Shown piece after piece: positions 13,101-28,104 of a stretch of DNA of 64,000 nucleotides; position 1 is the stretch's first letter; every line of letters begins with the position of its first letter. Made by a program: the position numbers and the translations under genes. Location: the NCBI GenBank assembly GCA_001275005.1, contig JWZX01003205.1, forward strand, positions 1 to 64,000, read 5' to 3'. Under the pieces are notes generated by a model, which made no database searches, was not told where the DNA came from, and worked only from the letters and a program-made list of their open reading frames with translations. The stretch is from Chrysochromulina tobinii (lineage: Eukaryota).

Positions 13101-16100
13101 GGCCGCAGCATCCATCGCCTCCGCTGCCGTCGCCCCCGCCTCGGGCGTCGTCTCGGGCGCGCCGCCTCCCCCGGCGAGCGTCTCGAGTGCATCGAGCGCC
13201 TGCCCAAGGAGCGTCATCAGAGATCATCAGCGGTCATCAGCGGTCATCAGCGGTCATCAGAGGTCATCAGAGGTCATCAGAGGTCATCAGCGTACCTGCC
13301 CAAGGAGCGTCACGAGCGCCTCGGGAGAGTAAAACGTCGCCACGAGCTCAGCCGTTGGGTGCTCGAGGAGCATACCGGTGATCTTGGAGGCGAGCGCTTC
13401 GTCACCTAGCTGCGCCGCCACTACTGGGTACAAAGCATTCCCAAGCTGCTGATCACGCATCGCGCTCGGCATCGCGTCGAGCGCCGCCACGTCACCTTCC
13501 GCGCTCGTCCAAGCTTTTGCGCAACAGGCCGCCTCGGAGCGCACGGCCACCGCTGGCGCTGCCTCCACTGCCCCGACTGCCTCCACAGCCTCCACAGCCT
13601 CCACTGCCCCCACTGCCTCCACGGCGGCGGCGGCGGCCGCATCGGCTTCTTGCGCGAGCGCGAGCCGCCACCGAATCAGTTTCTCTTCTTGCGCGCGCTG
13701 CTCCTCGTCGTGTCGACAGCCCTCACGCCGCTGCAGCAGCGCCAGCCACGTCCTCTGGAGCAGATTAGCCGCACGCGCGGCAGCCTCGGCGTCGAGCCGT
13801 TCGGCCTCCACCTGCATGCAATGAGGGAGGCAATCAGATGCAATCAGATGCAATCAGATGCAATCAGATGCAATCAGCCATCCGATCTTTTCGAGCCGTT
13901 CGGCCTGAGCCTTGGCGTTCACCTGCGCAGCGTGCTGCTCCGCCTCGGCCTTCGCGGCTGCCGTCGCGGCTGCCGTCGCGGCTGCCGTCGCGGCTGCCTC
14001 CGCAGCGTGCCGCTCCGCCTCAGCCGCCGCGTGCCGCTTGGCCCTCACAAGCCTCCCTCGACCGGCTGCCTGCAGCAGGCATGCCATACGTTCCTGCTGC
14101 TGCGCGCGAGCGAAGGCGAGCTCATCGGCGAACCGGTCGACATTGAAGCCCTTGCGCGAGAGCTTATCAAGGGGCCACGCGAGCAGCGACTCGAAGACGA
14201 TCTTGTCCGTGTTCTGCACCAGCTGGAGCAGCGCCGTCGCGAGCGCGTCGCCCACCGCCTCGAGCAGCTCGCGGAGCTCTAGCTGCGGATGCGGCACCAC
14301 GTGCACCACGAGCCAATCGCCCTCGGAGAGCGCGCACGCCTTGGCCTCCATCTCGATCGAGGCGAGCTCGCCAAAGCGCAGCGTGGACACGATGCCGGGC
14401 ACCTCGCTCACGACGACGCGCTGCTCACGCAGCGCCTGTTGCATGCCTTCTCGCAGGTTGGGTCGCAGCGGGCATTCGGGCTTGTCCAGGTCGTGCAGCA
14501 GCAGGCACGTGCGCTCCTCGATGCGTCGCAGCACCTGCTGCGTGAGCTTGCTGCTGCTCGGCACACTTCCCGCCACAGGGCGTGCCGAGACGGTCACCGC
14601 TTCCGAAAGCGAGCGCACGCCCAAAAAGGTGTACAACTCTTTCAAATCCGCATCCTCGGGCGCGACCAGCGGAGAAAAGAGCTCAACGTACCGCTGATTG
14701 TCCCCGATGAAGCAGCCCGCGGCGCTTACGGCGCTCCAGCTGCGCGCCGTCGCGCCGCCGCCGCCGCTGCCGCCCTTGCCGCCCTTGCCGCCACCTTCGC
14801 CCTTTGCCAGCTGATGGTAACCAATTAGCTGATGGTAACCAATTAGGCAGGGCGCGCTCGCGAGCGCAACGCGCGTCCTTTCGTCGATGGGCTCGCGCCG
14901 CAGCCCGTTCCAGAGCTCCTTGAGCACGCCGAGGTACGCCGAGATATTGGCCTGCATGCTGTCGATGCCGCGGCTGCCGTTGCGTAGCACGCAGCCGGCG
15001 AGAGCCACCGGCGATGGCGTCGCCGCGACGCCGCAACGGGCCAAAAAGGCGCCGGCCGAGGTCGAAGGGCTCTGGCTGCAGTAGTCGAGCAAGGCGCCGT
15101 ACTTTTTGCGCGCCCCGCTGAAAAAGAGAGCGTGCGGCGGCGCGTGCCCGACTCCTTGCCCGACCCCACTGCGCACTGGCACGACCGGCGCGTCCGAGAG
15201 AAGTCCCCACAGCTCTGTGCTCAGCTCGGCAGAGCGTCGGTGCATGTACTCAAAGGTGCGCTCGGCCGACTTCTCGGTCGGCGGCGCCGTGATGAGCTGG
15301 CGCACAACCGCCTCGATGCACGGACGCAACGGAAGCCGCAGCGCCGCGACGCCTGCGGGCCCGCCGAGTGCGCGCACGTCAGCGACTGCGAAGGCCCCAG
15401 GCCACGGCGACGGCTCCGAAAAAGAGACCGATGGCTTTCCGAGCAACGGCCGCCCGTGGGGCTCGAGTGTGGCCACGGATGCGCCCGAAGATCCGGCATC
15501 AGGCGCGGCGATCGGCAGCAGCGGTACGATCTCGAGGGTGGAGATCGGGTCGTACTCCGCAGCGTAGTGCTCCTCCATGTGGGAGATGAGGAAGGCAAGC
15601 GCGGCCTTTCTCACAGGCGCGTCGGCACCCGCCGCCTTGTCGAGCAGCGTGTCGAGCGGCGGCCGCTCGGCGATGCCCAGCCGCAACAGCATGCGCCGCT
15701 CGACCGCCGTCATCGACGTCCCAGACCACGGTAGGGTGGGCAGGCCCAAAGATCGCAATGCGTCAGTTGGTAGGTAGACGCTGCCGCCGCTGCCGCCGCC
15801 GCCGCCGCCGCCGCCGCTGCTGCTTGCGCGCATGGTCTCGAGCTCGGCCCAATCCTCGGGGCCCAGCATCCCTACTCGCTCGCGTGACTCAAGATAGCCC
15901 ACGAGCTCGCGATAGCCCCATCCGAGCTCTTCCATGCGTGCATGCACCAACACGACCGGTGGGTGTGAGCGCAGGCCGAGGCGTGCGAGCAGTGGGGATG
16001 GCACGCCCTCGAGCCCCGTCGCCACCGGCAGCCCGAGCTTTTCCAGCTGCGCGAGTGCGCTGGACGCCAGGTACGTTTCGGGAGGGCAGAGCATCTTGGT

Positions 16101-18322
16101 AGGCTCCACCGTGCCGCTGCTGACGCCGCCGCCATCGACGGCGCTCCCGCCGCTCGAAACGACGGGCACGCAGCGTCGGCTTCGCAGCGCTTGCACCACC
16201 GCGGCTTGCTGCTCCTCGGGCTGCTGCTCTAGGTGGGCACCCACCACGCGAAGCACAAGCGGCGCACTCTCGGGCGACTCAATGCATGCATGCCCACTAA
16301 TGAAGCCCCACCACATGTCGAAGCGGAGCTTCTGCAATCCGAGCTTCTGCTCGCACTGGCTGATGCTCAGATGGGCGGCCACGTCATGTGGCAGCGTCTC
16401 GGGCGGTAGCGGCAGCTCGGGCGGCAGCAGCGCCATGCCGCCGAGCGGGTGCAGGCTAAAAGTCGCGAGCGCTCGCGACATCCCCTCTCGACCGAGCGTC
16501 ACCTTGACTGACCGTTTGAACAATGCACGGTCGTCGGCGTCGCCAAAGGCCCGTCGGTCGTGCATCTGCGCATACCATACGAGGAGGCGGCCGAGCTGTG
16601 GGGCAGGCAGAACGGTGCCCGCGAGCTGCTCACAGAGCCGGCGCGCATCGAGCGGCCGAATGAGCGGCGGCGCGTGGCGCTCGAGCTGCTCGTAGAAAGC
16701 GAGGCAGTGGCACTCCGCGGCGGTGGGTGGGATCAGTGGCAGCTCTGTGAGGAATTCGAGGGCACCTCGCAGCTCGGCTGGCACGGTGAACACGAGGGAT
16801 GCCGGCTGCGGCCCAAAGGTACTGGGCACCACAAGCCTGTCGCCCTGCGCGAGGAATGCGTCTGAGAGTAGCTTGCTCACTGTTCGGTTGGGTGTTGAGG
16901 GTATAAAGGTATGGCCCCGGAGCAGCGCCGCGAGCCACGGAGTGAGCACAGGCGGCGGCGGCTCCTTCTTCCTCTCCTCCTCGGCCGGCGCCGAAGCGTC
17001 GGCGGGGCCCGTGCTGGCGGCGGCGGCGGCGGCGATGGCGGCGGCGGCGGCGGCGGCAGCGACTGGTGGCTTCTTTTGAAGCACCTTGACCTTGACGGGT
17101 AGCGCGCCGGTGCTACTGCCGCTCAGGCGGAGCAGCTCGTCGGTGAAGTAATGGAGCGCCATGCTGCCGGCCATCGCGAGCAGCGCCGTGTTCCAAAATT
17201 GGCAATTCTTGTCGTTCATATCGAGGGCGGTCCGCTCCATGGTCGGCAAGAACCCGCCGCACAGATGAAATCCACACCTGTCGACTGGTCCGTCTGTCCG
17301 ATTCCGATATAGATGCGGCCGTCCTCGCGCAGCGCGTGCATCGCGGCGAGCAGTGCGGCGCTGTGCGGCGACGCCGTTCCCGGCGCGTCCGCACTCGACG
17401 CTGCTGGGGCACCGCCACTCGGCACGGGGTAGAGGAGCCGCAGCGTGGAGCGATCGGGCAGGCCCTTGCCGAGAAGCCGACACAAGCCCGCGGTGACGTC
17501 GCCGAGCTTGCCGCGGTCCGTCTTGCGCACGTCCAGCTCGCCCTTGAGCTGCACGAGCTCCGTGATCGCGAGCACACGACTGAGGCTCGTGGCCGACACG
17601 GAGAGCTTTGCAACCTCGAGCGATCTCCCGCCCATGGAGAAGAGCGGACGGATCACGGCGCCGTCACGCGTCTCGGCTGGCGCGGGGCTCTCGTACGGCA
17701 CCGTACGCAGCGGTGTCAGCGCCCGGCGGAAAATGAGCGGCGCAGGCTCGTCAGTGCGCACCAGCTCGATCGTGGCGAGCGTTCGCGCGAAGAGGAGCGT
17801 CGAGCATAGGAACGAGCAAAGTTTCCCAAACTCGTCGGGTGACGCCCAGTGGGTGGCGTCCGCGCCAGCGAGCAGCGGGCACACGACGGTGGCGCCGCTC
17901 ACCAGCGTCGTCAATGCCCGCTCGTAGATGCAGTAGGCCTTGTCCTCCTTGGCAAAACGCATGGCCTTGCCGCCCGATTGGATCTCCGGCTGGTCCGAGG
18001 CCGAGAAGACTGAGTAGAAGCCGACACCGAATAGACCGACGGATGAGGAGTCCGTGTTGCCCTTGGCGATCATGGCCACGCGCTCCCAATCGGCCTCACC
18101 GAATTCGCGACCAGAGTTGGACACCTCGAGCTTGGCCACGCTGCCGTCCGCAGCCACGTGCAGGGTGATCCTGCTGTGGGTCGCCTCGGCGTCGTCGCTA
18201 TTCTGCAGCAGCTCACGCAGCACGAAGAAGGAGGCACTGTACCGTGACAGGATTTTGGACATGAGTGCCTCGTAGTCCACGCCGAGAAGCCGGCGCGTCT
18301 CGCCACCATGACCGCCCTCCAT
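10190..18322 (-). CDS. Multi-exon giant protein: sacsin/HSP90-like ATPase (DUF3684-type N-terminus), helical region, MLLE/PABC domain, coiled coil, C-terminal PDZ; one frameshift at about 17277
   Basis: ILSRYSASFFVLRELLQNSDDA..NSGREF..DWERV..IAKGN..VGLFGVGFYSVF (GHKL/sacsin motifs). GRIYIG..FLPTMERTALD..WN. MLLE: QQLGNALYPVV..ASKITGMLLE. PDZ: RLGVTL..GKLFVGDQVLSVSG. Predicted frame-consistent introns: 13812-13922, 13200-13295, 12003-12051, 11830-11902, 11502-11568, 11171-11261. That all exons form a single transcript is inferred. Confidence 0.7.
11502..11902 (-). repeat. Four copies of the cassette TGCATGCATGTGCTCACCACGGC; two are extended by a pyrimidine tract plus CAG and form intron 3' ends
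   Basis: Plus-strand gccgtggtgagcacatgcatgca at 11521, 11702, 11750 and 11849. Confidence 0.9.
13200..13295 (-). other. Predicted GT-AG intron with (CTGATGACCN)n decamer core and duplicated exon end
   Basis: CAG|GTACGC...TGACGCTCCTTGGGCAG|GCG. Removing it rejoins the two halves of the MLLE domain in frame. Confidence 0.85.
13812..13922 (-). other. Predicted GT-AG intron with (CATCTGATTG)n decamer core
   Basis: CAG|GTGAAC...TGCATGCAG|GTGGAG. Phase 0; removes an in-frame stop between the two ORFs. Confidence 0.75.
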
Positions 18323-18645
18323 GATAGCGTCACCGAGAAGGACGCGACGTTCTCCACTAACTTGGCGCCGTCTCGGGCATTTCGTAATATTTAATCTGTT
18401 TTCCACTCACGGGAGACGCTCATACACATCCTCACAAGACACGCACACACTCAAACGTCCAGGTTTTGAGCGATGGTTTTGAGATAGGAGCAGGGGGGAT
18501 GCAGCGGTGCACCAAAGAGATGGCGAGCGCCTTCTGTGCCTCGTTTCGTATTAAGCGAGCTCACGAAACCACTCGTGCACCTCAAGGTGCTAAAGTTAGG
18601 ACTGAACTGAACTTAACTGATGAGGACTGTGAAGCACGATCAAGG

Positions 18646-21600
18646 ATGAGCGACTTTGTTGGGGACGACCCCGACTTCGCGGCGCTCTCCGAAGTCTTCG
18701 CGGAGCCATCCGAGTCGGAGAGTTCGGATTTGATCGAGGAGTTTTTTGGAGGGCAGCCCCTAACACAAATCTCAGACCCGCAGCCTCCGCCGCCGCCCAC
18801 CGTCCCTGGCGCACACGACGCCGGCGACGATTACGGCGAGATCGCTGCGGATATCGCGGCAGATAACGTGGCAGCTCACGTCGCCGCCATGGCGGATAAC
18901 ATGCCGCCGCCGGCGGCGGCTGGGAGGTCGAGCAGTATGGTCGCCATGGCCGGGCCGAGCGCTCCTGAGGTTCTTCCCGAAAGGCTCTTACATCTCGTCA
19001 ACTTAATAGCCAACCGAACCATATGGACACCGCAGAAGCACGACATTGCCCTGCTGCTCATGTACAAGGACAATCCCCAGCTCGCCCGCGTGCCTCGGCG
19101 GCCAGAGGCTGATAAGTACTTGGCGATCGGCCCGTGCGTCTTCTTCGTGGATAAGAGTATGCCAGCGGACGGGAAAAAGAGGAAAATGGAATCCAGTTCA
19201 CAGGCCGGCGGATCCTCCAACGACGAGTTGTGGATCAAGGGTACGAGCACCTCTGCAGCTGGCAGCTCGCTCGACAAGAATTTGCCGCCGAATGCAGGGT
19301 GCAGTGCCTTACTTCGCAAGAGTGGCGGGTTCACCCGAGCAGCTAAGGAGCTGTATGGCCCAAGGAGTATCGGACATTATTGTTTGGGCTACACTGAAGA
19401 GCATTCCAGCTTTCTCCCTGGCTGCGTCGAGGATCGAACACGAACGCTCCTCGTTGGGCGCAGCAAGGAGAAGTTTCAACCCTGTACTACCTGGCTGGTT
19501 CACTGCATGCCGACCGAGCACGACTCGGATGACGCAGAAAGCGCCGGTGCACCAGACAAGCCAGACGCGACCTTCGGAAAGGTCAGCGTGGACGAGTTGC
19601 GAATCAAGGGCGTGGATCTTTGGGAAGAGTTCCTGGAGATGAAACGACAGTGTCAGGAGCTCGTGCAGGAGCTTAACGAGAAGGTGAAGCGCTTAGAGGA
19701 TGGAGCTTCGGGCCACACAAGCCAGCGTGCCGATCTCGCTGAATGGATGCGCAAGTTGTCGGCAGACGAAGTGATTCGCCCGGGGGACATTGGACAAGTG
19801 CGCGGCGAGCGCTTCACCAGAGAAATCACCAGTGAGCCAGGTGGTATCATCTTTGTCGTGAGCTCCGCTCCTGCATTGGCGTTCAATATGCCCGAGGCTC
19901 CCGAGGAGCGCGCGGAGGGTGTGGTGCTCGCCTTTATCGGCCGTGTCCCCGTCTTCTGTGTGGGCGACGCACCGCTCGACTCCTTTCTGGTGCCATCCGG
20001 GCTCGACGATGGTTCGGCTCGCGCAGTGTCGTGGTCGCAGGTGATGAGCAATGAACCTTCTTCTCGAACGGAGCCTCTGCCCCTCTCTGCCTCTCACACG
20101 AGTTTTCGGATGTACCCCGTCTGTGTGCCATGCGCAGCTCGAGTCAGACGAGTCGTTGCGAGACCGGTGCTTTGGAGTCGTCTGGGGACACTTGCCGCCG
20201 GACACCGACGGTCGGCCGATGGTGCTCGCCTTCGTGTGTGCCCATCCGCAACAAACCTTTGGGAGGCTGCGCAACGTGGAACAGGTTGCCCCGCTCCGAA
20301 GCGAGCTCGTGCCTGCGCCTTTGTCCGGGCGGCGTCCGCTCGAACTGCGTCCGTACCAGATGGAATGCTTGAAAGCTGGGATGGCTGAGAACACCATCGT
20401 CTGTTTGGACACCGGCTTGGGCAAGACGCCAATCGCTGTGAAGCTCGTGGATCACTTCCTTGCCGCAGCAACAGAAGCATCGGACGGCAGCAAAGTCCTC
20501 TTCATCGTACCCACCGTTGTCTTGGTGGAGCAGCAGGCGCGAGTGTGCCGACAGTACAGCGCGAACGCACGTTGCGTCACCGAGCTCTGCGGCAACCGTC
20601 TGGGTGGGTGGACACAGGCGAGCTGGGACTTGTGCATCCAGACCAGCGATGTCCTTGTCGGCACACCCGCCATCTTTGCTGATGCTATCATTACTCGTGG
20701 ATACCTCGACTTGTCGCGGTTCTCGTTGATTGTGTTTGACGAGGTGCATAATGCAACTGGCAACAGCCCGATGGCTTCGCTGATGAACGATGCCTACTGG
20801 GCTGCCAAGGACAAGGGAGTTGCGGTGCCTCACATCCTCGGTTTGACCGCTTCCTTTGTCGCCGGAGCCATCGATGACCTCGCCGGCAAGCGTCAAGCTC
20901 TCGAGACGCTGATGGACTCCCAGATCTTTGCCCCAGAGGTGCCCGTCGAGTATTGCGGCACGCCAACGTTCCACACCGTAGCGTATCTCCCTGACGCGCT
21001 CGAGAACTATCAAGAGTTGGCTAGTGACAAGGTGGACGTCCTGCTGTCAAGCTTCGAGGGCGAGCCTATTCAAGTCAAGGATCGCAAGAAGATAGTGAAT
21101 CACGCGGCACACGTGCTCGTCGAGGGCGGCATGTCTGCCTTCCTTTTCTACCTCGGAGAGTCAGTTGCGTACCAGCTGCAAGGTATTGCTCAAAACTTGG
21201 CTGAAATGTCGGACGAGAACGCTAAGGCCTGTAGGCACAAGGCGAACCATCTTTGTAAGATACTCCCCGAGCTCCGTCGAAGGCTCAAGGAGGGAGCGAG
21301 AGGCCTGCAGGAGGACGGCCAGCTCACGAGTGCACCATTCGTCTCAGCCAAGGCCCGGCGTCTCCTCGAACTCGTTGAGGACAATTTGAAACGTCATGCC
21401 AACCAGGCGCAGTACAAGGGCATCGTGTTTGTCGAGCAGGTGGCATTGAGCTTCCCGCTCGCATACCTGCTGAATCAGCACTTTGAACGTCCAGACTGCG
21501 TCGGTGCGGCGTGCGGCGTACGTGCCGACGTCATCTCCGGTGTGGGCACGATGTCAAGCTCGCAACGAAGCGCAGTGCTCGAACGATTCAAGAAGGGAGA

Positions 21601-22726
21601 GGTTCGCATCCTGGTGGCCACCGCTGCCATCGAAGAGGGCCTCGACGTCAGCGACTGCCAATTTGTGGTACGGTACTCGCATTTCAACGTCCCAAAGAGC
21701 CATATCCAGGGCACAGGACGAGCACGCCATCGGAAGGCCGAGATCTACTATTTTGAGAATTCACCTGACGCGGAGTGCTTCAAGGCGGCGGAGATGAAGC
21801 TGGTTGCCCAGGACCCCTCTCTCGCACTGTGCGAAGCTGACCGCACCCAACTTGCGCGTGAGAGCTTGCGTAGCATTGAGGGCTTCTACCCTTTCGGGCA
21901 GGGCAGCGACGGGGGCGTCGTCAACATCTACAACTGCGTGCAAATCTTTACTGAGTACTGTAGCAAAGTGATGGGCCAGGGGCTCAATTTGCGACAGTTG
22001 AAGATCGAGGTCTACCGAACGGAAAAAGTCCGGGCGTTCCCGCTCGAGGAACGCGAATACCTGGCCCTGGTTCGCTACCCTTCTCCCGACGGATACCAAG
22101 AAGTGAGCTTCGAGGATGTGGGGGCGCATTGGGGCGATCGCGCTGTGATGGACGTCTTGATGCCCGGACGAGCCTTGGAGTCCATGGCTGACAAGGAGCG
22201 CCATCGCTTCCTGTACACGGTCGTGGTCAGGATGCGTCTGGCAGGCTATCTGACCGATGCCAACCAGCCGAGCCCCAGGGCCATCGTGGACACGAAGGCG
22301 GCAGTGGCTGCCATCTCGGCGCCCGACGAGTTCAACATCCTCGACCGCTTTGCGCCCGATGCGCTCGATCAAAGGTTCGGCTCCAGCGTCTCAATCAGCG
22401 CACCCGCACTCGAGCCAGACATGGCTGAGGCAGGCATGCCGCCCCCACCCCCGACTACTGAGAACCACAAGGGGAAACTGATGGAGAAGGCAGTGAAGCT
22501 GTGGAAGACGAGCGATGGGGTGCGATTTCAGACGCAAGTGTCTGGCCAGCCCCCAACTCAAATCTTCCAGGCCACCGTCACCCTCCTACCGTTGGGTGAG
22601 GACTGCAAGTTCACGGGTGCGCAAGCCTCGACGAAAATCAAGGCCGAGCAGGCGGCGGCCGCCGCGGCAATGCCTCGCATGGATGCTGAAATCGCCTGGC
22701 CTCTAGCAACGAAGCCAGCAACCTAG
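18646..22726 (+). CDS. Two-exon fusion protein (about 1327 aa; exons 18646-20040 and 20138-22726): acidic N-terminus, putative DNA-binding domain with NLS, coiled coil, Peptidase G2-like autocleavage domain, Dicer-type DExH helicase, DUF283-like domain, dsRBD
   Basis: Phase-0 intron CAG|GTGATG...TGCGCAG|CTC (20041-20137) joins ORFs 18466 and 20051. Helicase motifs: LRPYQ, DTGLGKT, DEVH, GLTAS, VATAAIEEGLDV, IQGTGRAR. DUF283-like EYCSK..LAGYLTD. dsRBD NHKGKLME..FQATV..KIKAEQAAA. ADLAEW..PGD..VVSSAP..GRVPV..LVPSG..G.ARA. The start codon is uncertain (18499 is an alternative). Confidence 0.85.
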
Positions 22727-23098
22727 CTTTTGCTTGCCTCTACGTGTACCTTGGTTCTATAGCTACGACGTACCCTGTTGACGGGCGGACGGGCCTGAAG
22801 CTGTGTTGTGCGGTACATGTACGAGTAGATCTGAATCGGGAGTCTGACTGAACGCATGCGAGCTCATACATGCCGCCATGATGAGCTACAAGCGAGGAGT
22901 TGTGAGGGCGGGATACGGGGATGGGTCCAGGGGTGATACGGGGGGACCGGCATTCGAGTCGATGCTAGTCCGAGACGTGAAGTATGTGGAGTTCGAGTTC
23001 ATTTCACGCTCCATTCGTCAATTCTTTCGTCACGCGACCGCTTCGTCAAAAAATTCACAATCAACGTTCGTGCCGTGTCTTCGCGATCTGCGGACGGA

Positions 23099-25001: not shown

Positions 25002-25966
25002 TCAGGATTCAATCAGCTGCGTTGCAGGAGGTCGCCCCATGCTGCCGTCGGCCCCTGTGTGCATATGTCCCTGAGGCTGCTGCCTGCTCCCTGTTCCACT
25101 GTGGACGCCAAGCTTCCGACAGCGATCGTACATCACTATCGAGCCCGCGACGGCGACATTGTAGCTCGAGGCACGCACGCCATCCAGCGAGATGCAGTAC
25201 TGGCACGCGCTCACGACGCTCTTCGGCAGGCCGGCGTCCTCAGCTCCGAGTATGTACACCGCGCGCTCCGGGTGAACGAACTCGGCGAGAGGGATCCCGC
25301 CCATCTCCACGGCAACCCAGATTGTCGAGTAGGGCGCCGCCGCCGCGAAGGAGGCCCAGTCTTCGTAGCGGAGAGCAGGAATGTGCCGCCATGTCTTATA
25401 CGTATCCGCTGCCTTCTCCCAAGCATTTCGCTGGCCTATGGTGAAAATGTACGCAGCACCAAGCATAAAGGCGGAGCGTCACAGCGTGCCGACGTTCTCG
25501 ACGGACTTGGAGTTGTACACTCCAATCCCGAAGAAGCCACCAGTTGTGATTGCAGCGTCGGCTGACTGCACATCGCCAGCCGTCGCCTGTGCACCCTCTG
25601 CGAGCGACTGCCGACGACGTGCTGTAGTCACTGTCTCCATTGCTTCGTGAGTTAGAGCAGGCTGCTCAAGCATCACCTCGACACGACAGACTCCATGCTC
25701 ATCCGCGATCGGCATCGGTATGCACGAGTGTTCGCGAAGCCGCTCCCAACCCTCGAGCACCTTCGAGTAGAAGTAAGGCACCAGCCTATGCAACGGCACG
25801 TTGGCCTCCACCGAGCCCAATGCGTATAGTAGCTCAGCTCCAGAAATGGTGCTCGCCCCGGAGGCCTCAAGTCGGAGCACGCGTCGTTCCGAAGGGTCTC
25901 ACCCTTGAACATGTAGCGCAGCACCAGAATGGACTCCGCGATCGGCCCGGCTGCCATCGTCGCCAT
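25002..25966 (-). pseudogene. SpoU/TrmH-family RNA methyltransferase interrupted by an in-frame TGA (25479-25481) and an apparent frameshift near 25890
   Basis: FFGIGVYNSKSVENVGTL*RSAFMLGAAYIFTIG..HPERAVYILGAED.GL..SYNVAVAGSIVMYDR. The stop sits where Trp is expected (NxGTLWRSA). Confidence 0.7.
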
Positions 25967-26140
25967 TCGGGTGCCAGAGGCGACGAAGGTGTGAATGCAA
26001 TCAGGCCGTTATCGGCCGGAAATAAGCCCCCCCCGAGTGTGTAGATAAGGTGGTTGGGCTGTTATGTGTGGCGGCGATAATTTTGCGTGTTGCATGTTTT
26101 TCTGTTCAGATGCGAGTGGTTCTAATTCCGCTGGTCCACA

Positions 26141-26650
26141 ATGCTGCCGTCCACAGCGCGTTTTTACGCTGGCGATGCGTACGCGGCAGTTCGAGCCCAC
26201 AATTTGGTCGCTCCTGCAGCTTTGCCCATATATGATTCGTGCGACGGCGTCCTCACACCCAATCATCTGACCGTCACTGCCAACGAGAACCCGATTGTGA
26301 ACCGTGAGAAACTGGTCAGCGCAGTCTCACGGCTTTGCCAAGTCGTAAAGCCACCCAAGCGACCTGCTGTCGTGTCATCGTGCTCGCTAGACGGGCACGA
26401 AGTCCGAGTCATGCACAAACTTGGGGTCGTGCAAGGAATTGAGGGGCAACGGCACGACGATTTGGTGGCCATCTACCATCTCCAACCGAGAAAGCGAGAC
26501 GTCCTCATGACATATCGGCCCACGCCAACACCGATAGGCGCGGCGATGCCTGTGCTGGAGAGACCCGAGTACGCTCCGGCGTTGATGAAAGTGGCGAATG
26601 CCGCGGTCGTCGGGCAACTCGCCCCATCACCGCACCAACCCAACCGTTAG
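26141..26650 (+). CDS. Hypothetical ORF, possibly a 5' exon of the downstream cNMP-binding gene
   Basis: 169-aa ATG-initiated ORF with normal composition. No motif recognised. Confidence 0.3.
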   Translation: MLPSTARFYAGDAYAAVRAHNLVAPAALPIYDSCDGVLTPNHLTVTANENPIVNREKLVSAVSRLCQVVKPPKRPAVVSSCSLDGHEVRVMHKLGVVQGIEGQRHDDLVAIYHLQPRKRDVLMTYRPTPTPIGAAMPVLERPEYAPALMKVANAAVVGQLAPSPHQPNR

Positions 26651-26709
26651 TCCGCAGACCCTTCGTCCCATCGCCACGGTTTGCACTTCGCGCCCGCGCT
26701 CCTGGCGCA

Positions 26710-28104
26710 TTGGCTCATCCGCCGGCCTCGGCACGTGGCACGGCACGTGGCAGGGCGGCAAGTGGGTCGACACTTGGCACCGGCAACACTGTCGGCAGTG
26801 CTCCTGACGCTCCACCCGCGGAGTTACCCGCGGAGGCTGCGTCGTCTGCTACTACTCAAGCCGTGGCAGTCGCTTTGTCCGATGAGGTCGATGCTGCGGG
26901 TCTGTCGATACCGTCGGCGGCAGTCACGGCAGGGCCAGTCGCAGTGATGGCGACGCCCGCGCAGAGGGAGAAGCGCCGTCGGTGCCAGCTCCGAGCAAAG
27001 ATGCGCCGCCTGCTTCGTCAGGCGATCAAGTTGGCTCTGGAGGATGTGGCCCTCGGTCGCACCATTGGAAGCAAGTCGTCCAACGCCCCTCTCGTTGACT
27101 TGGCGAAATTGACGCGCGTGGCGATGGAGACGCGCCGGATTGTCGACGCACTGAAGCGTTCGGACCTATTCGCACAAGTGGACGCGCAGCACTTGAGGCT
27201 CATTGCCTCCTCAGGCACGCGCCGTACGTACAAGAGGTATGACGTCCTCTATCGTGAAGGAGCGCCTGCGCAGTGCTTCTACATGCTCACGCGCGGAACT
27301 CTCATGGAGTCGAGCATGCACACGGCGAGCGCTGCATACGGTGCCGACGAGCCGAAGCTGCTCTCGGCGCGTGAGAACTTCACCATCCGGGGTGTCGGCC
27401 AAGGTGGAAGCGGCAAGGCCGACGAGCAAGGCGGCAGCGGCAAGACCGGCGGCGCGAGCGATGCCACGGGCACGAGCGGCTATGTGCTTTTCGGACTTGA
27501 GACACTGGTGGGACGTGCGCGTGAGTCGACGCTGTTGGCGATGAGCGACGTGGATGTGATCCGGTTCAACTCCAGCAATACCATCCTGGGCGGCGACACC
27601 TTTGCTCGCAGCCTCAAGCTCGACGCGAAGGCAGCTGCCAAAGTCGCCAAGCGCATCTTCCATGCATTCGTGTTCGGCGAGCTCTCGCGCATGCAACTCT
27701 TCCACGGGGTGATAGCAAAGACCCTCCGTGCGCTAGTGCCCCTCTTCACATTCGAAGAGATCGAGGAGGGCGCCCAGATTTTCGGGCTTGGCTACGCGCC
27801 GGACAAGGTGTACATCCTGATGCATGGGTCGGTTTACCTGCGGCGGCGCGACGGCACCCGATTCGCAGCGCTCTCAGCCGAGCAGGGCCAGTCTGGGCGC
27901 GGCCTTGAGCCTCGAGAGCTCCCGACGTTTGGGGAGACGGCGATGCTCGATCGCAAGGCGCGCACGACGTCGGCGATCGCGGTGACAGCCTGCAAGCTTT
28001 TAGTGCTGCACGCGGAGCACTTTGGGGCGTGCACGGACCTCGTGCCTGATATCAAGGAACGTCTGCGTTCCCTGGGAGATATGCCGCTGAAGGGTGCGCA
28101 GTAA
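26710..28104 (+). CDS. Tandem cyclic nucleotide-binding domain protein (5' end uncertain)
   Basis: LKRSDLFAQV..YDVLYREGAPAQCFYMLTRG..FGLETL..RESTLLA. Second domain LFHGV..GAQIF..DKVYILMHGSV..FGETAML..RTTSAIAVTACKLLVL. Confidence 0.85.
   Translation: MAHPPASARGTARGRAASGSTLGTGNTVGSAPDAPPAELPAEAASSATTQAVAVALSDEVDAAGLSIPSAAVTAGPVAVMATPAQREKRRRCQLRAKMRRLLRQAIKLALEDVALGRTIGSKSSNAPLVDLAKLTRVAMETRRIVDALKRSDLFAQVDAQHLRLIASSGTRRTYKRYDVLYREGAPAQCFYMLTRGTLMESSMHTASAAYGADEPKLLSARENFTIRGVGQGGSGKADEQGGSGKTGGASDATGTSGYVLFGLETLVGRARESTLLAMSDVDVIRFNSSNTILGGDTFARSLKLDAKAAAKVAKRIFHAFVFGELSRMQLFHGVIAKTLRALVPLFTFEEIEEGAQIFGLGYAPDKVYILMHGSVYLRRRDGTRFAALSAEQGQSGRGLEPRELPTFGETAMLDRKARTTSAIAVTACKLLVLHAEHFGACTDLVPDIKERLRSLGDMPLKGAQ

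Follow-up and report, generated by a model that had tools for sequence, protein, structure and literature searches.

Here we describe a spliced gene at positions 18646 to 22726 of a 64,000-nucleotide (nt) stretch of Chrysochromulina tobinii DNA (contig JWZX01003205.1; this whole stretch is hereafter the window), whose 1327-residue product joins an autochaperone domain of the phi29 gp12/Peptidase G2 type to a Dicer-type DExH helicase and a C-terminal double-stranded RNA (dsRNA)-binding domain (dsRBD). The protein lies outside Dicer, MYRF and the RIG-I-like receptors, although it shares the logic of each. We tentatively favour, at somewhat less than an even chance, a reading in which it is a self-cleaving dsRNA sensor that would send the freed N-terminal fragment to the nucleus. 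Little is established about the way in which algae detect viral RNA and switch on defence genes, and this gene offers a concrete one-polypeptide route. The gene and its product comprise the following features.

18646..20040, + strand: exon 1, residues 1-465 (465 codons), an open frame from the ATG with partial RNA contig cover
20041..20137, + strand: intron, 97 nt, phase 0, GT..AG, within the G2 domain, skipped in five of six RNA runs
20138..22726, + strand: exon 2, residues 466-1327 and stop (862 codons plus stop), covered by an RNA contig from run X9 and by contigs through the stop
18646..18963, + strand: acidic low-complexity tail, residues 1-106, net charge -18
18781..18927, + strand: in-frame insert of 147 nt (49 residues) resembling multi-copy sequence, missing from the close relatives P0001, P0061, P0206 and P0207
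18964..19512, + strand: N-terminal globular domain, residues 107-289, three helices and an antiparallel sheet, with W196 invariant
19174..19185, + strand: KKRK, residues 177-180, in a low-confidence loop
19570..19704, + strand: beta stalk, short (FGKVSVDELRIKG), with a coiled-coil helix, residues 309-353, contributing to the predicted trimer interface
19729..19743, + strand: A362/D363-L-A-E366, predicted self-cleavage site and catalytic Glu, by alignment to gp12
19732..20242, + strand: Peptidase G2/gp12 D4-type autochaperone domain, residues 363-500, split by the intron, by profile and fold
20345..21763, + strand: Dicer-type DExH helicase, residues 535-1007 (RPYQ, LDTGLGKT, DEVH, GLTAS, IQGTGRAR)
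21887..22351, + strand: conserved post-helicase domain, residues 1049-1203, with a DUF283-like start whose first helix aligns to ancestral Dicer
22469..22669, + strand: dsRBD (dsrm, PF00035), matched with the C-terminal piece

Gene structure and transcripts

The helicase-G2 gene starts at ATG 18646, and its intron borders read CAG/GTGATG..TGCGCAG/CTC. GC content within the intron is flat across codon positions (0.55/0.59/0.56). Because any of 65 GT..AG pairs within the range scanned would fuse the two frames, the intron could not be selected from sequence alone, and it is RNA that selects 20041-20137. Eight of the 19 listed sequencing runs were aligned, six of them RNA, from mixed-culture and freshwater samples. 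The 97-nt skip is present in X1, X3 and X4, which are 2019 mixed-culture runs and possibly one campaign, and in X9 (2025, polyA) and X12 (2017), which are separate studies. The sixth RNA run, X2, has no joint at the intron and yields a contig (20049-20341) containing intron sequence, and X16, whose run type is unrecorded, crosses the intron unspliced (19675-20802). A single spliced contig of X9 covers 19229-22483, and a second, overlapping contig begins at 18898. The joint across 20040/20138 in five runs thus bears out the preliminary description of this DNA, which had fused two open reading frames through this phase-0 intron into a protein of about 1327 residues.

Two separate genes are excluded by the RNA joints together with the intronless single open reading frames of the homologous sequences L001 (943-4068) and L003 (3-3887), in which the G2 domain and the helicase lie within one frame. 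The spliced junction aligns to intronless homologs without a gap, which places the intron inside the G2 domain. A further sequence, L002, represents the same DNA in a second assembly (99.97% identity; four gaps and one mismatch) and is not counted as support. The motifs fall in the order that the preliminary description had given (KKRK at residue 177, ADLAEW at 362, GRVPV at 432 and LVPSG at 448), except that the autoprotease domain is not confined to exon 1, its last strands (CFGVVW..VLAFV) being encoded by exon 2. In the P0001 cluster of homologs, the intron region is in frame in six of nine members, giving a 32-residue insert inside G2; retention there would therefore leave the protein at full length but break up its protease domain.

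At the 3' end, contigs from X1, X2, X4 and X9 pass the stop codon to 22813-22896 without a joint, no joint in the RNA runs leads onward past the stop, and the next gene on the + strand encodes a PAS protein. A scan of all six frames of the window with a crude RNase III motif found nothing, and neither PAZ nor RNase III gave a Pfam match in exon 2 or in the long relatives P0001, P0002, P0003, P0011, P0014 and P0154. Since joints span the intron, contigs cross the stop and the PAS gene comes next, we read the locus as a single gene that shows no sign of an RNase III exon, in agreement with the earlier claim that neither domain follows the dsRBD.

Domain composition and relatives

The middle domain is a gp12/Peptidase G2-type autochaperone. 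The family profile matches gp12 (E 8.5e-5), and structure comparison assigns the domain the gp12 D4 fold; the window's own G2 domain gives no Pfam match to PF11962, which is matched by 43 of the 86 relatives scanned. In the structural alignment D363 (model residue 257) lies on gp12 residue 692, and E366, encoded by GAA at 19741-19743, is in register with residue 695. Mature gp12 ends at residue 691 (PMC6542822). The gp12 structure 3GQH starts with DFAEY, and 3SUC carries DFAQY. E695 of gp12 is reportedly catalytic, a result attributed to Xiang in 2009, and 3SUC, the E-to-Q 'pre-mature' structure, agrees with this assignment; gp12 D4 also has a reported ATP requirement. Self-cleavage of the present protein is predicted between A362 and D363. 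The D and E are conserved in 188 of the 200 G2 domains extracted, a count that takes in near-duplicates, and in 12 of 12 G2-helicase fusions listed, and Ala preceding the D is the norm in the subfamily (89 of 137), whereas gp12 has Ser there. Modelling of the stalk and G2 of homolog P0154 predicts a homotrimer with no RNA present (0.88 versus 0.00), a prediction that may reflect the predictor's memory of the solved gp12 trimer. The phage-type intramolecular-chaperone autoprotease, the Glu codon singled out for an E-to-Q mutant and the trimer of the preliminary description are thereby recovered, with the protease now typed as G2 and the trimer as a prediction for a homolog.

The helicase is of Dicer type with its motifs intact, as had been proposed. 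Its top match by sequence and by Foldseek is the Dicer module (AncD1D2, DCL4, Dcr-2); matches to RIG-I-like receptors are split into two stretches and rank below it. The post-helicase domain is 29-52% identical in P0002, P0003, P0011 and P0014; the earlier DUF283-like label holds for its first helix, which aligns to Dicer, and not beyond, the region alone giving no Pfam or phmmer match. The dsRBD expected at the C terminus scores 24.6 bits against a cut-off of 23. The protein ends there, with no Pfam match to CARDs or to the zinc-binding C-terminal domain of RIG-I-like receptors. The helicase follows G2 within about 35 residues and the P0154 model is soluble, leaving no sign of a transmembrane anchor, although no dedicated transmembrane predictor was run. 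A back-joint from 22689 to 22413, with 11 extra letters and 288 nt in all, occurs in X9, X12 and X16, and other strains appear to carry two tandem dsRBD copies.

The N-terminal region opens with the acidic tail, a possible activation region. Many unrelated RNA contigs map to 18789-18896 and P0004 has a similar stretch, so the 147-nt insert may represent a repeat or a small mobile element. In X2 a weak joint runs from 18727 to 18927 at this insert. For the globular domain, searches with Pfam, PDB sequences, Atlas and Foldseek identified no family, and one weak fold match was obtained, to 7K7V of the CG-1/NAC/Ssr4 subgroup in the WRKY-GCM1 clan. Its helices followed by an antiparallel sheet, and its invariant Trp downstream of an acidic loop, are reminiscent of the CG-1 (CAMTA)/NAC/Gti1-Pac2/Ssr4-N subgroup. 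The W196 column holds Trp in 24 of 24 rows, an exact DxxxW in 9 of 24 and a D at -4/-3 in 14 of 24, many of the rows being near-copies, and we infer that W196 is equivalent to the DxxxW Trp of the subgroup. NAC, GCM and WOPR are absent from the 50 best VIA structural matches to the domain, and no Ndt80-like domain is among the Pfam, Foldseek or VIA matches listed. In the first structural model, that of P0154, the domain had low confidence and the fold searches were dominated by helicases. The DNA-binding character suggested in the preliminary description thus finds a weak echo in the fold match and the invariant Trp, which hint at a CG-1/NAC/Ssr4 (WRKY-GCM1) fold, and no named family stands behind it. 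KKRK could serve as a nuclear localisation signal or lie in a loop that contacts DNA.

The architecture is conserved in other lineages. G2 is joined to a helicase start in 12 stored proteins, 36-92% identical from G2 to Walker A, which form nine groups with at most 68% identity between groups; gene calls are partial for P0006 and P0214, which stop at Walker A, and for P0007, P0010, P0155 and P0208, which stop within the helicase. L003/P0014 carries, between its post-helicase domain and its dsRBD, a Z-alpha-like winged helix (L003 3075-3290; also in P0003 by eye) that matches PF02295 with E 0.002 and 18.6 bits against a cut-off of 21, DprA_WH scoring alike. Its N..LY.L and P.W align to ADAR1, hinting at Z-RNA sensing in L003/P0003. 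P0009, P0156 and P0189 have the same N-domain and G2 with an ankyrin-like tail replacing the helicase; in P0189 this tail has E 0.05 and is followed by a dsRBD-like end, seen by eye. P0027 and P0055 have an N-domain, G2 and several hydrophobic, membrane-like segments (by eye), a MYRF-like layout, and their N-domain is collinear with ours without reaching significance (hhalign probability 0.5%; in a second run 4-5%, P 0.002-0.011). One member of the P0027/P0055 cluster carries the source label MMETSP0958.

A quick tree of G2 domains (81 rows, 139 columns) took in only P0189 from P0157-P0204, together with other matches trimmed to 45. All 18 rows grouped as helicase fusions, including six closely related to exon 1 of the window, lie on the same side of a branch (SH-aLRT 95), where eight further rows also lie, and no donor is apparent among the 81 rows. 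Scanning viral contigs with the window's G2 alone, which detects close relatives only, gave no relative among nine pattern matches. G2-like domains occur in the giant-virus proteins 8H2I P22 and Chlorella virus B170R and in Pithovirus and Klosneuvirus collagen-repeat proteins; giant viruses are a possible route of G2 into algae. A separate eukaryote-like G2 clade comprises P0017, P0018, P0020, P0025, P0044, P0045 and P0047, and the P0017-group layout runs from an N-terminal C-x2-C pair repeat through a coiled coil and G2 to long helical tails.

Mechanism, rival readings and known systems

Under the sensor reading, the helicase and dsRBD would bring protein copies together on dsRNA, and the clustered G2 domains would trimerise and cut at A362/D363. 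This would release a trimeric 39-kDa N-terminal fragment, with a possible CG-1/NAC-fold DNA-binding domain, the acidic tail and KKRK, to function in the nucleus. Cleavage, dsRNA control, DNA binding, nuclear entry and antiviral output are steps that we infer. Three points weigh against the reading: intramolecular-chaperone domains such as those of phage tail spikes and MYRF cut once the trimer has folded correctly (PMC8326128, PMC3357383); the stalk and G2 are predicted to be trimeric without RNA; and no membrane anchor retains the precursor. The last two make constitutive cleavage a serious rival. In such a polyprotein G2 would trimerise and cut on folding. The N-terminal part would then be a trimeric factor, while the helicase-dsRBD part, set free, would work in RNA silencing alongside a distinct RNase III protein, either as one half of a split Dicer or as a helper like DRH-1/RDE-4. 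A helicase nearer Dicer than RIG-I-like receptors suits this, as do the Emiliania huxleyi Dicer-like models, three of four lacking RNase III and one carrying RNase III without a helicase, in PMC4839659, whose passages on these models, where G2 was not itself searched for, do not mention it. G2-helicase genes may account for some such RNase-III-less 'Dicer-like' models in haptophytes. We nevertheless consider the polyprotein rather unlikely; it leaves unexplained why the fusion was retained across nine groups (36-68% between groups) and why other C-terminal modules (ankyrin-like, P0189) can also follow the N-domain and G2. Control of G2 cleavage is also possible, since cleavage of C. elegans MYRF is reportedly gated (PMC12803276).

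Sensing and self-cleavage could also be real with a different product: in place of a host transcription factor, the released piece would be a rapidly evolving effector or decoy, which would bind viral DNA, bind a viral protein or set off cell death. In P0159/P0161 the beta half of the N-domain is 41-43% identical while G2 is 95-96% and the helicase 90-95% identical, and the N-domains of the fusions P0006, P0155 and P0214 have no detectable profile similarity to ours; the acidic tail, basic loop, invariant Trp and weak CG-1/NAC-subgroup fold match all agree with a transcription factor, and we judge this reading unlikely. More improbable is that G2 serves only to trimerise and is never cut, the intact trimer forming a bridge between dsRNA and DNA or chromatin, as could happen in co-transcriptional silencing. 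The P22 tailspike provides a precedent for an uncleaved auto-chaperone domain (PMC3357383), and the window's G2 has no PF11962 score of its own and an Ala where gp12 has Ser, but this Ala is usual in the subfamily and the D and E have been retained almost throughout.

The protein shares with Bacillus phage phi29 gp12 D4 (PF11962; 3GQH, 3SUC) the fold, the D-x-x-E start in register (D363/692, E366/695), the predicted trimer and an upstream beta stalk. In gp12, however, D4 is C-terminal and is discarded after the tail spike has folded, whereas here the domain is internal, has the helicase and dsRBD (about 830 residues) on its C-terminal side, and sits in a spliced eukaryotic gene. MYRF, whose DNA-binding domain is Ndt80-like, and Dictyostelium MrfA resemble it in a candidate N-terminal DNA-binding domain, a beta stalk, a phage-derived trimeric autoprotease and release of a front trimer. 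Here, by profile and fold, the protease is of G2 and not S74 Ser-Lys type, an RNA helicase stands in place of the anchor, and the N-domain has no MYRF match; MYRF carries a Ser-Lys S74-type ICA domain and an endoplasmic reticulum membrane anchor (PMC8326128). The Dicer N-terminal module (AncD1D2, DCL4, Dcr-2) shares the helicase match, an alignment into the first DUF283 helix and the C-terminal dsRBD, but the 1327-residue protein lacks PAZ and RNase III and has a new N-terminal unit of about 500 residues. RIG-I-like receptors and C. elegans DRH-1 offer an analogy, as non-dicing duplex-RNA helicases with an N-terminal signalling unit that needs oligomerisation; they differ in their CARDs and C-terminal domain, neither seen here, in a helicase less near to Dicer, and in nucleating an adaptor where the output here would be self-cleavage.

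Among titles and abstract openings, a scope that most subscription papers fall outside, the Peptidase G2 papers contained no eukaryotic protein with a G2-helicase layout, and no paper combined tail-spike autoproteolysis with Dicer, helicase, algae and transcription factor. If the sensor reading is true, self-cleaving transcription factors are not limited to the MYRF type: they would also draw on another family of phage proteases and come under the control of a ligand through an enzyme. Under any of the rivals, the gene still represents an undescribed, conserved eukaryotic use of a gp12-type autoprotease. A broader reading, which we hold more doubtfully, is of one-protein innate immunity in algae, probably haptophytes: a Dicer-derived helicase would read viral dsRNA, and in some lineages Z-RNA, and G2 would trimerise and free a CG-1/NAC-type factor. 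This would be one branch of a set of protist G2-cleaved factors with a swapped C-terminal sensor (helicase, ankyrin-like or membrane anchor), and the MYRF design would have been invented twice.

Neighbouring genes

Two genes flank the helicase-G2 gene in the window, where GC content is 57-69% in 2-kb bins.

13854-18406, - strand: sacsin/HATPase and DUF3684 gene, the divergent neighbour, split in the window and a single 1517-residue frame in L002
23196-23804, + strand: short PAS-domain gene, directly downstream, with high-depth RNA contigs

An X2 contig carries a C insertion after 17274, within the sacsin/HATPase gene, and the split of this gene is likely an assembly error of the window. The SpoU (25002-26008) and cNMP-binding (26126-28104) genes are joined in L002.
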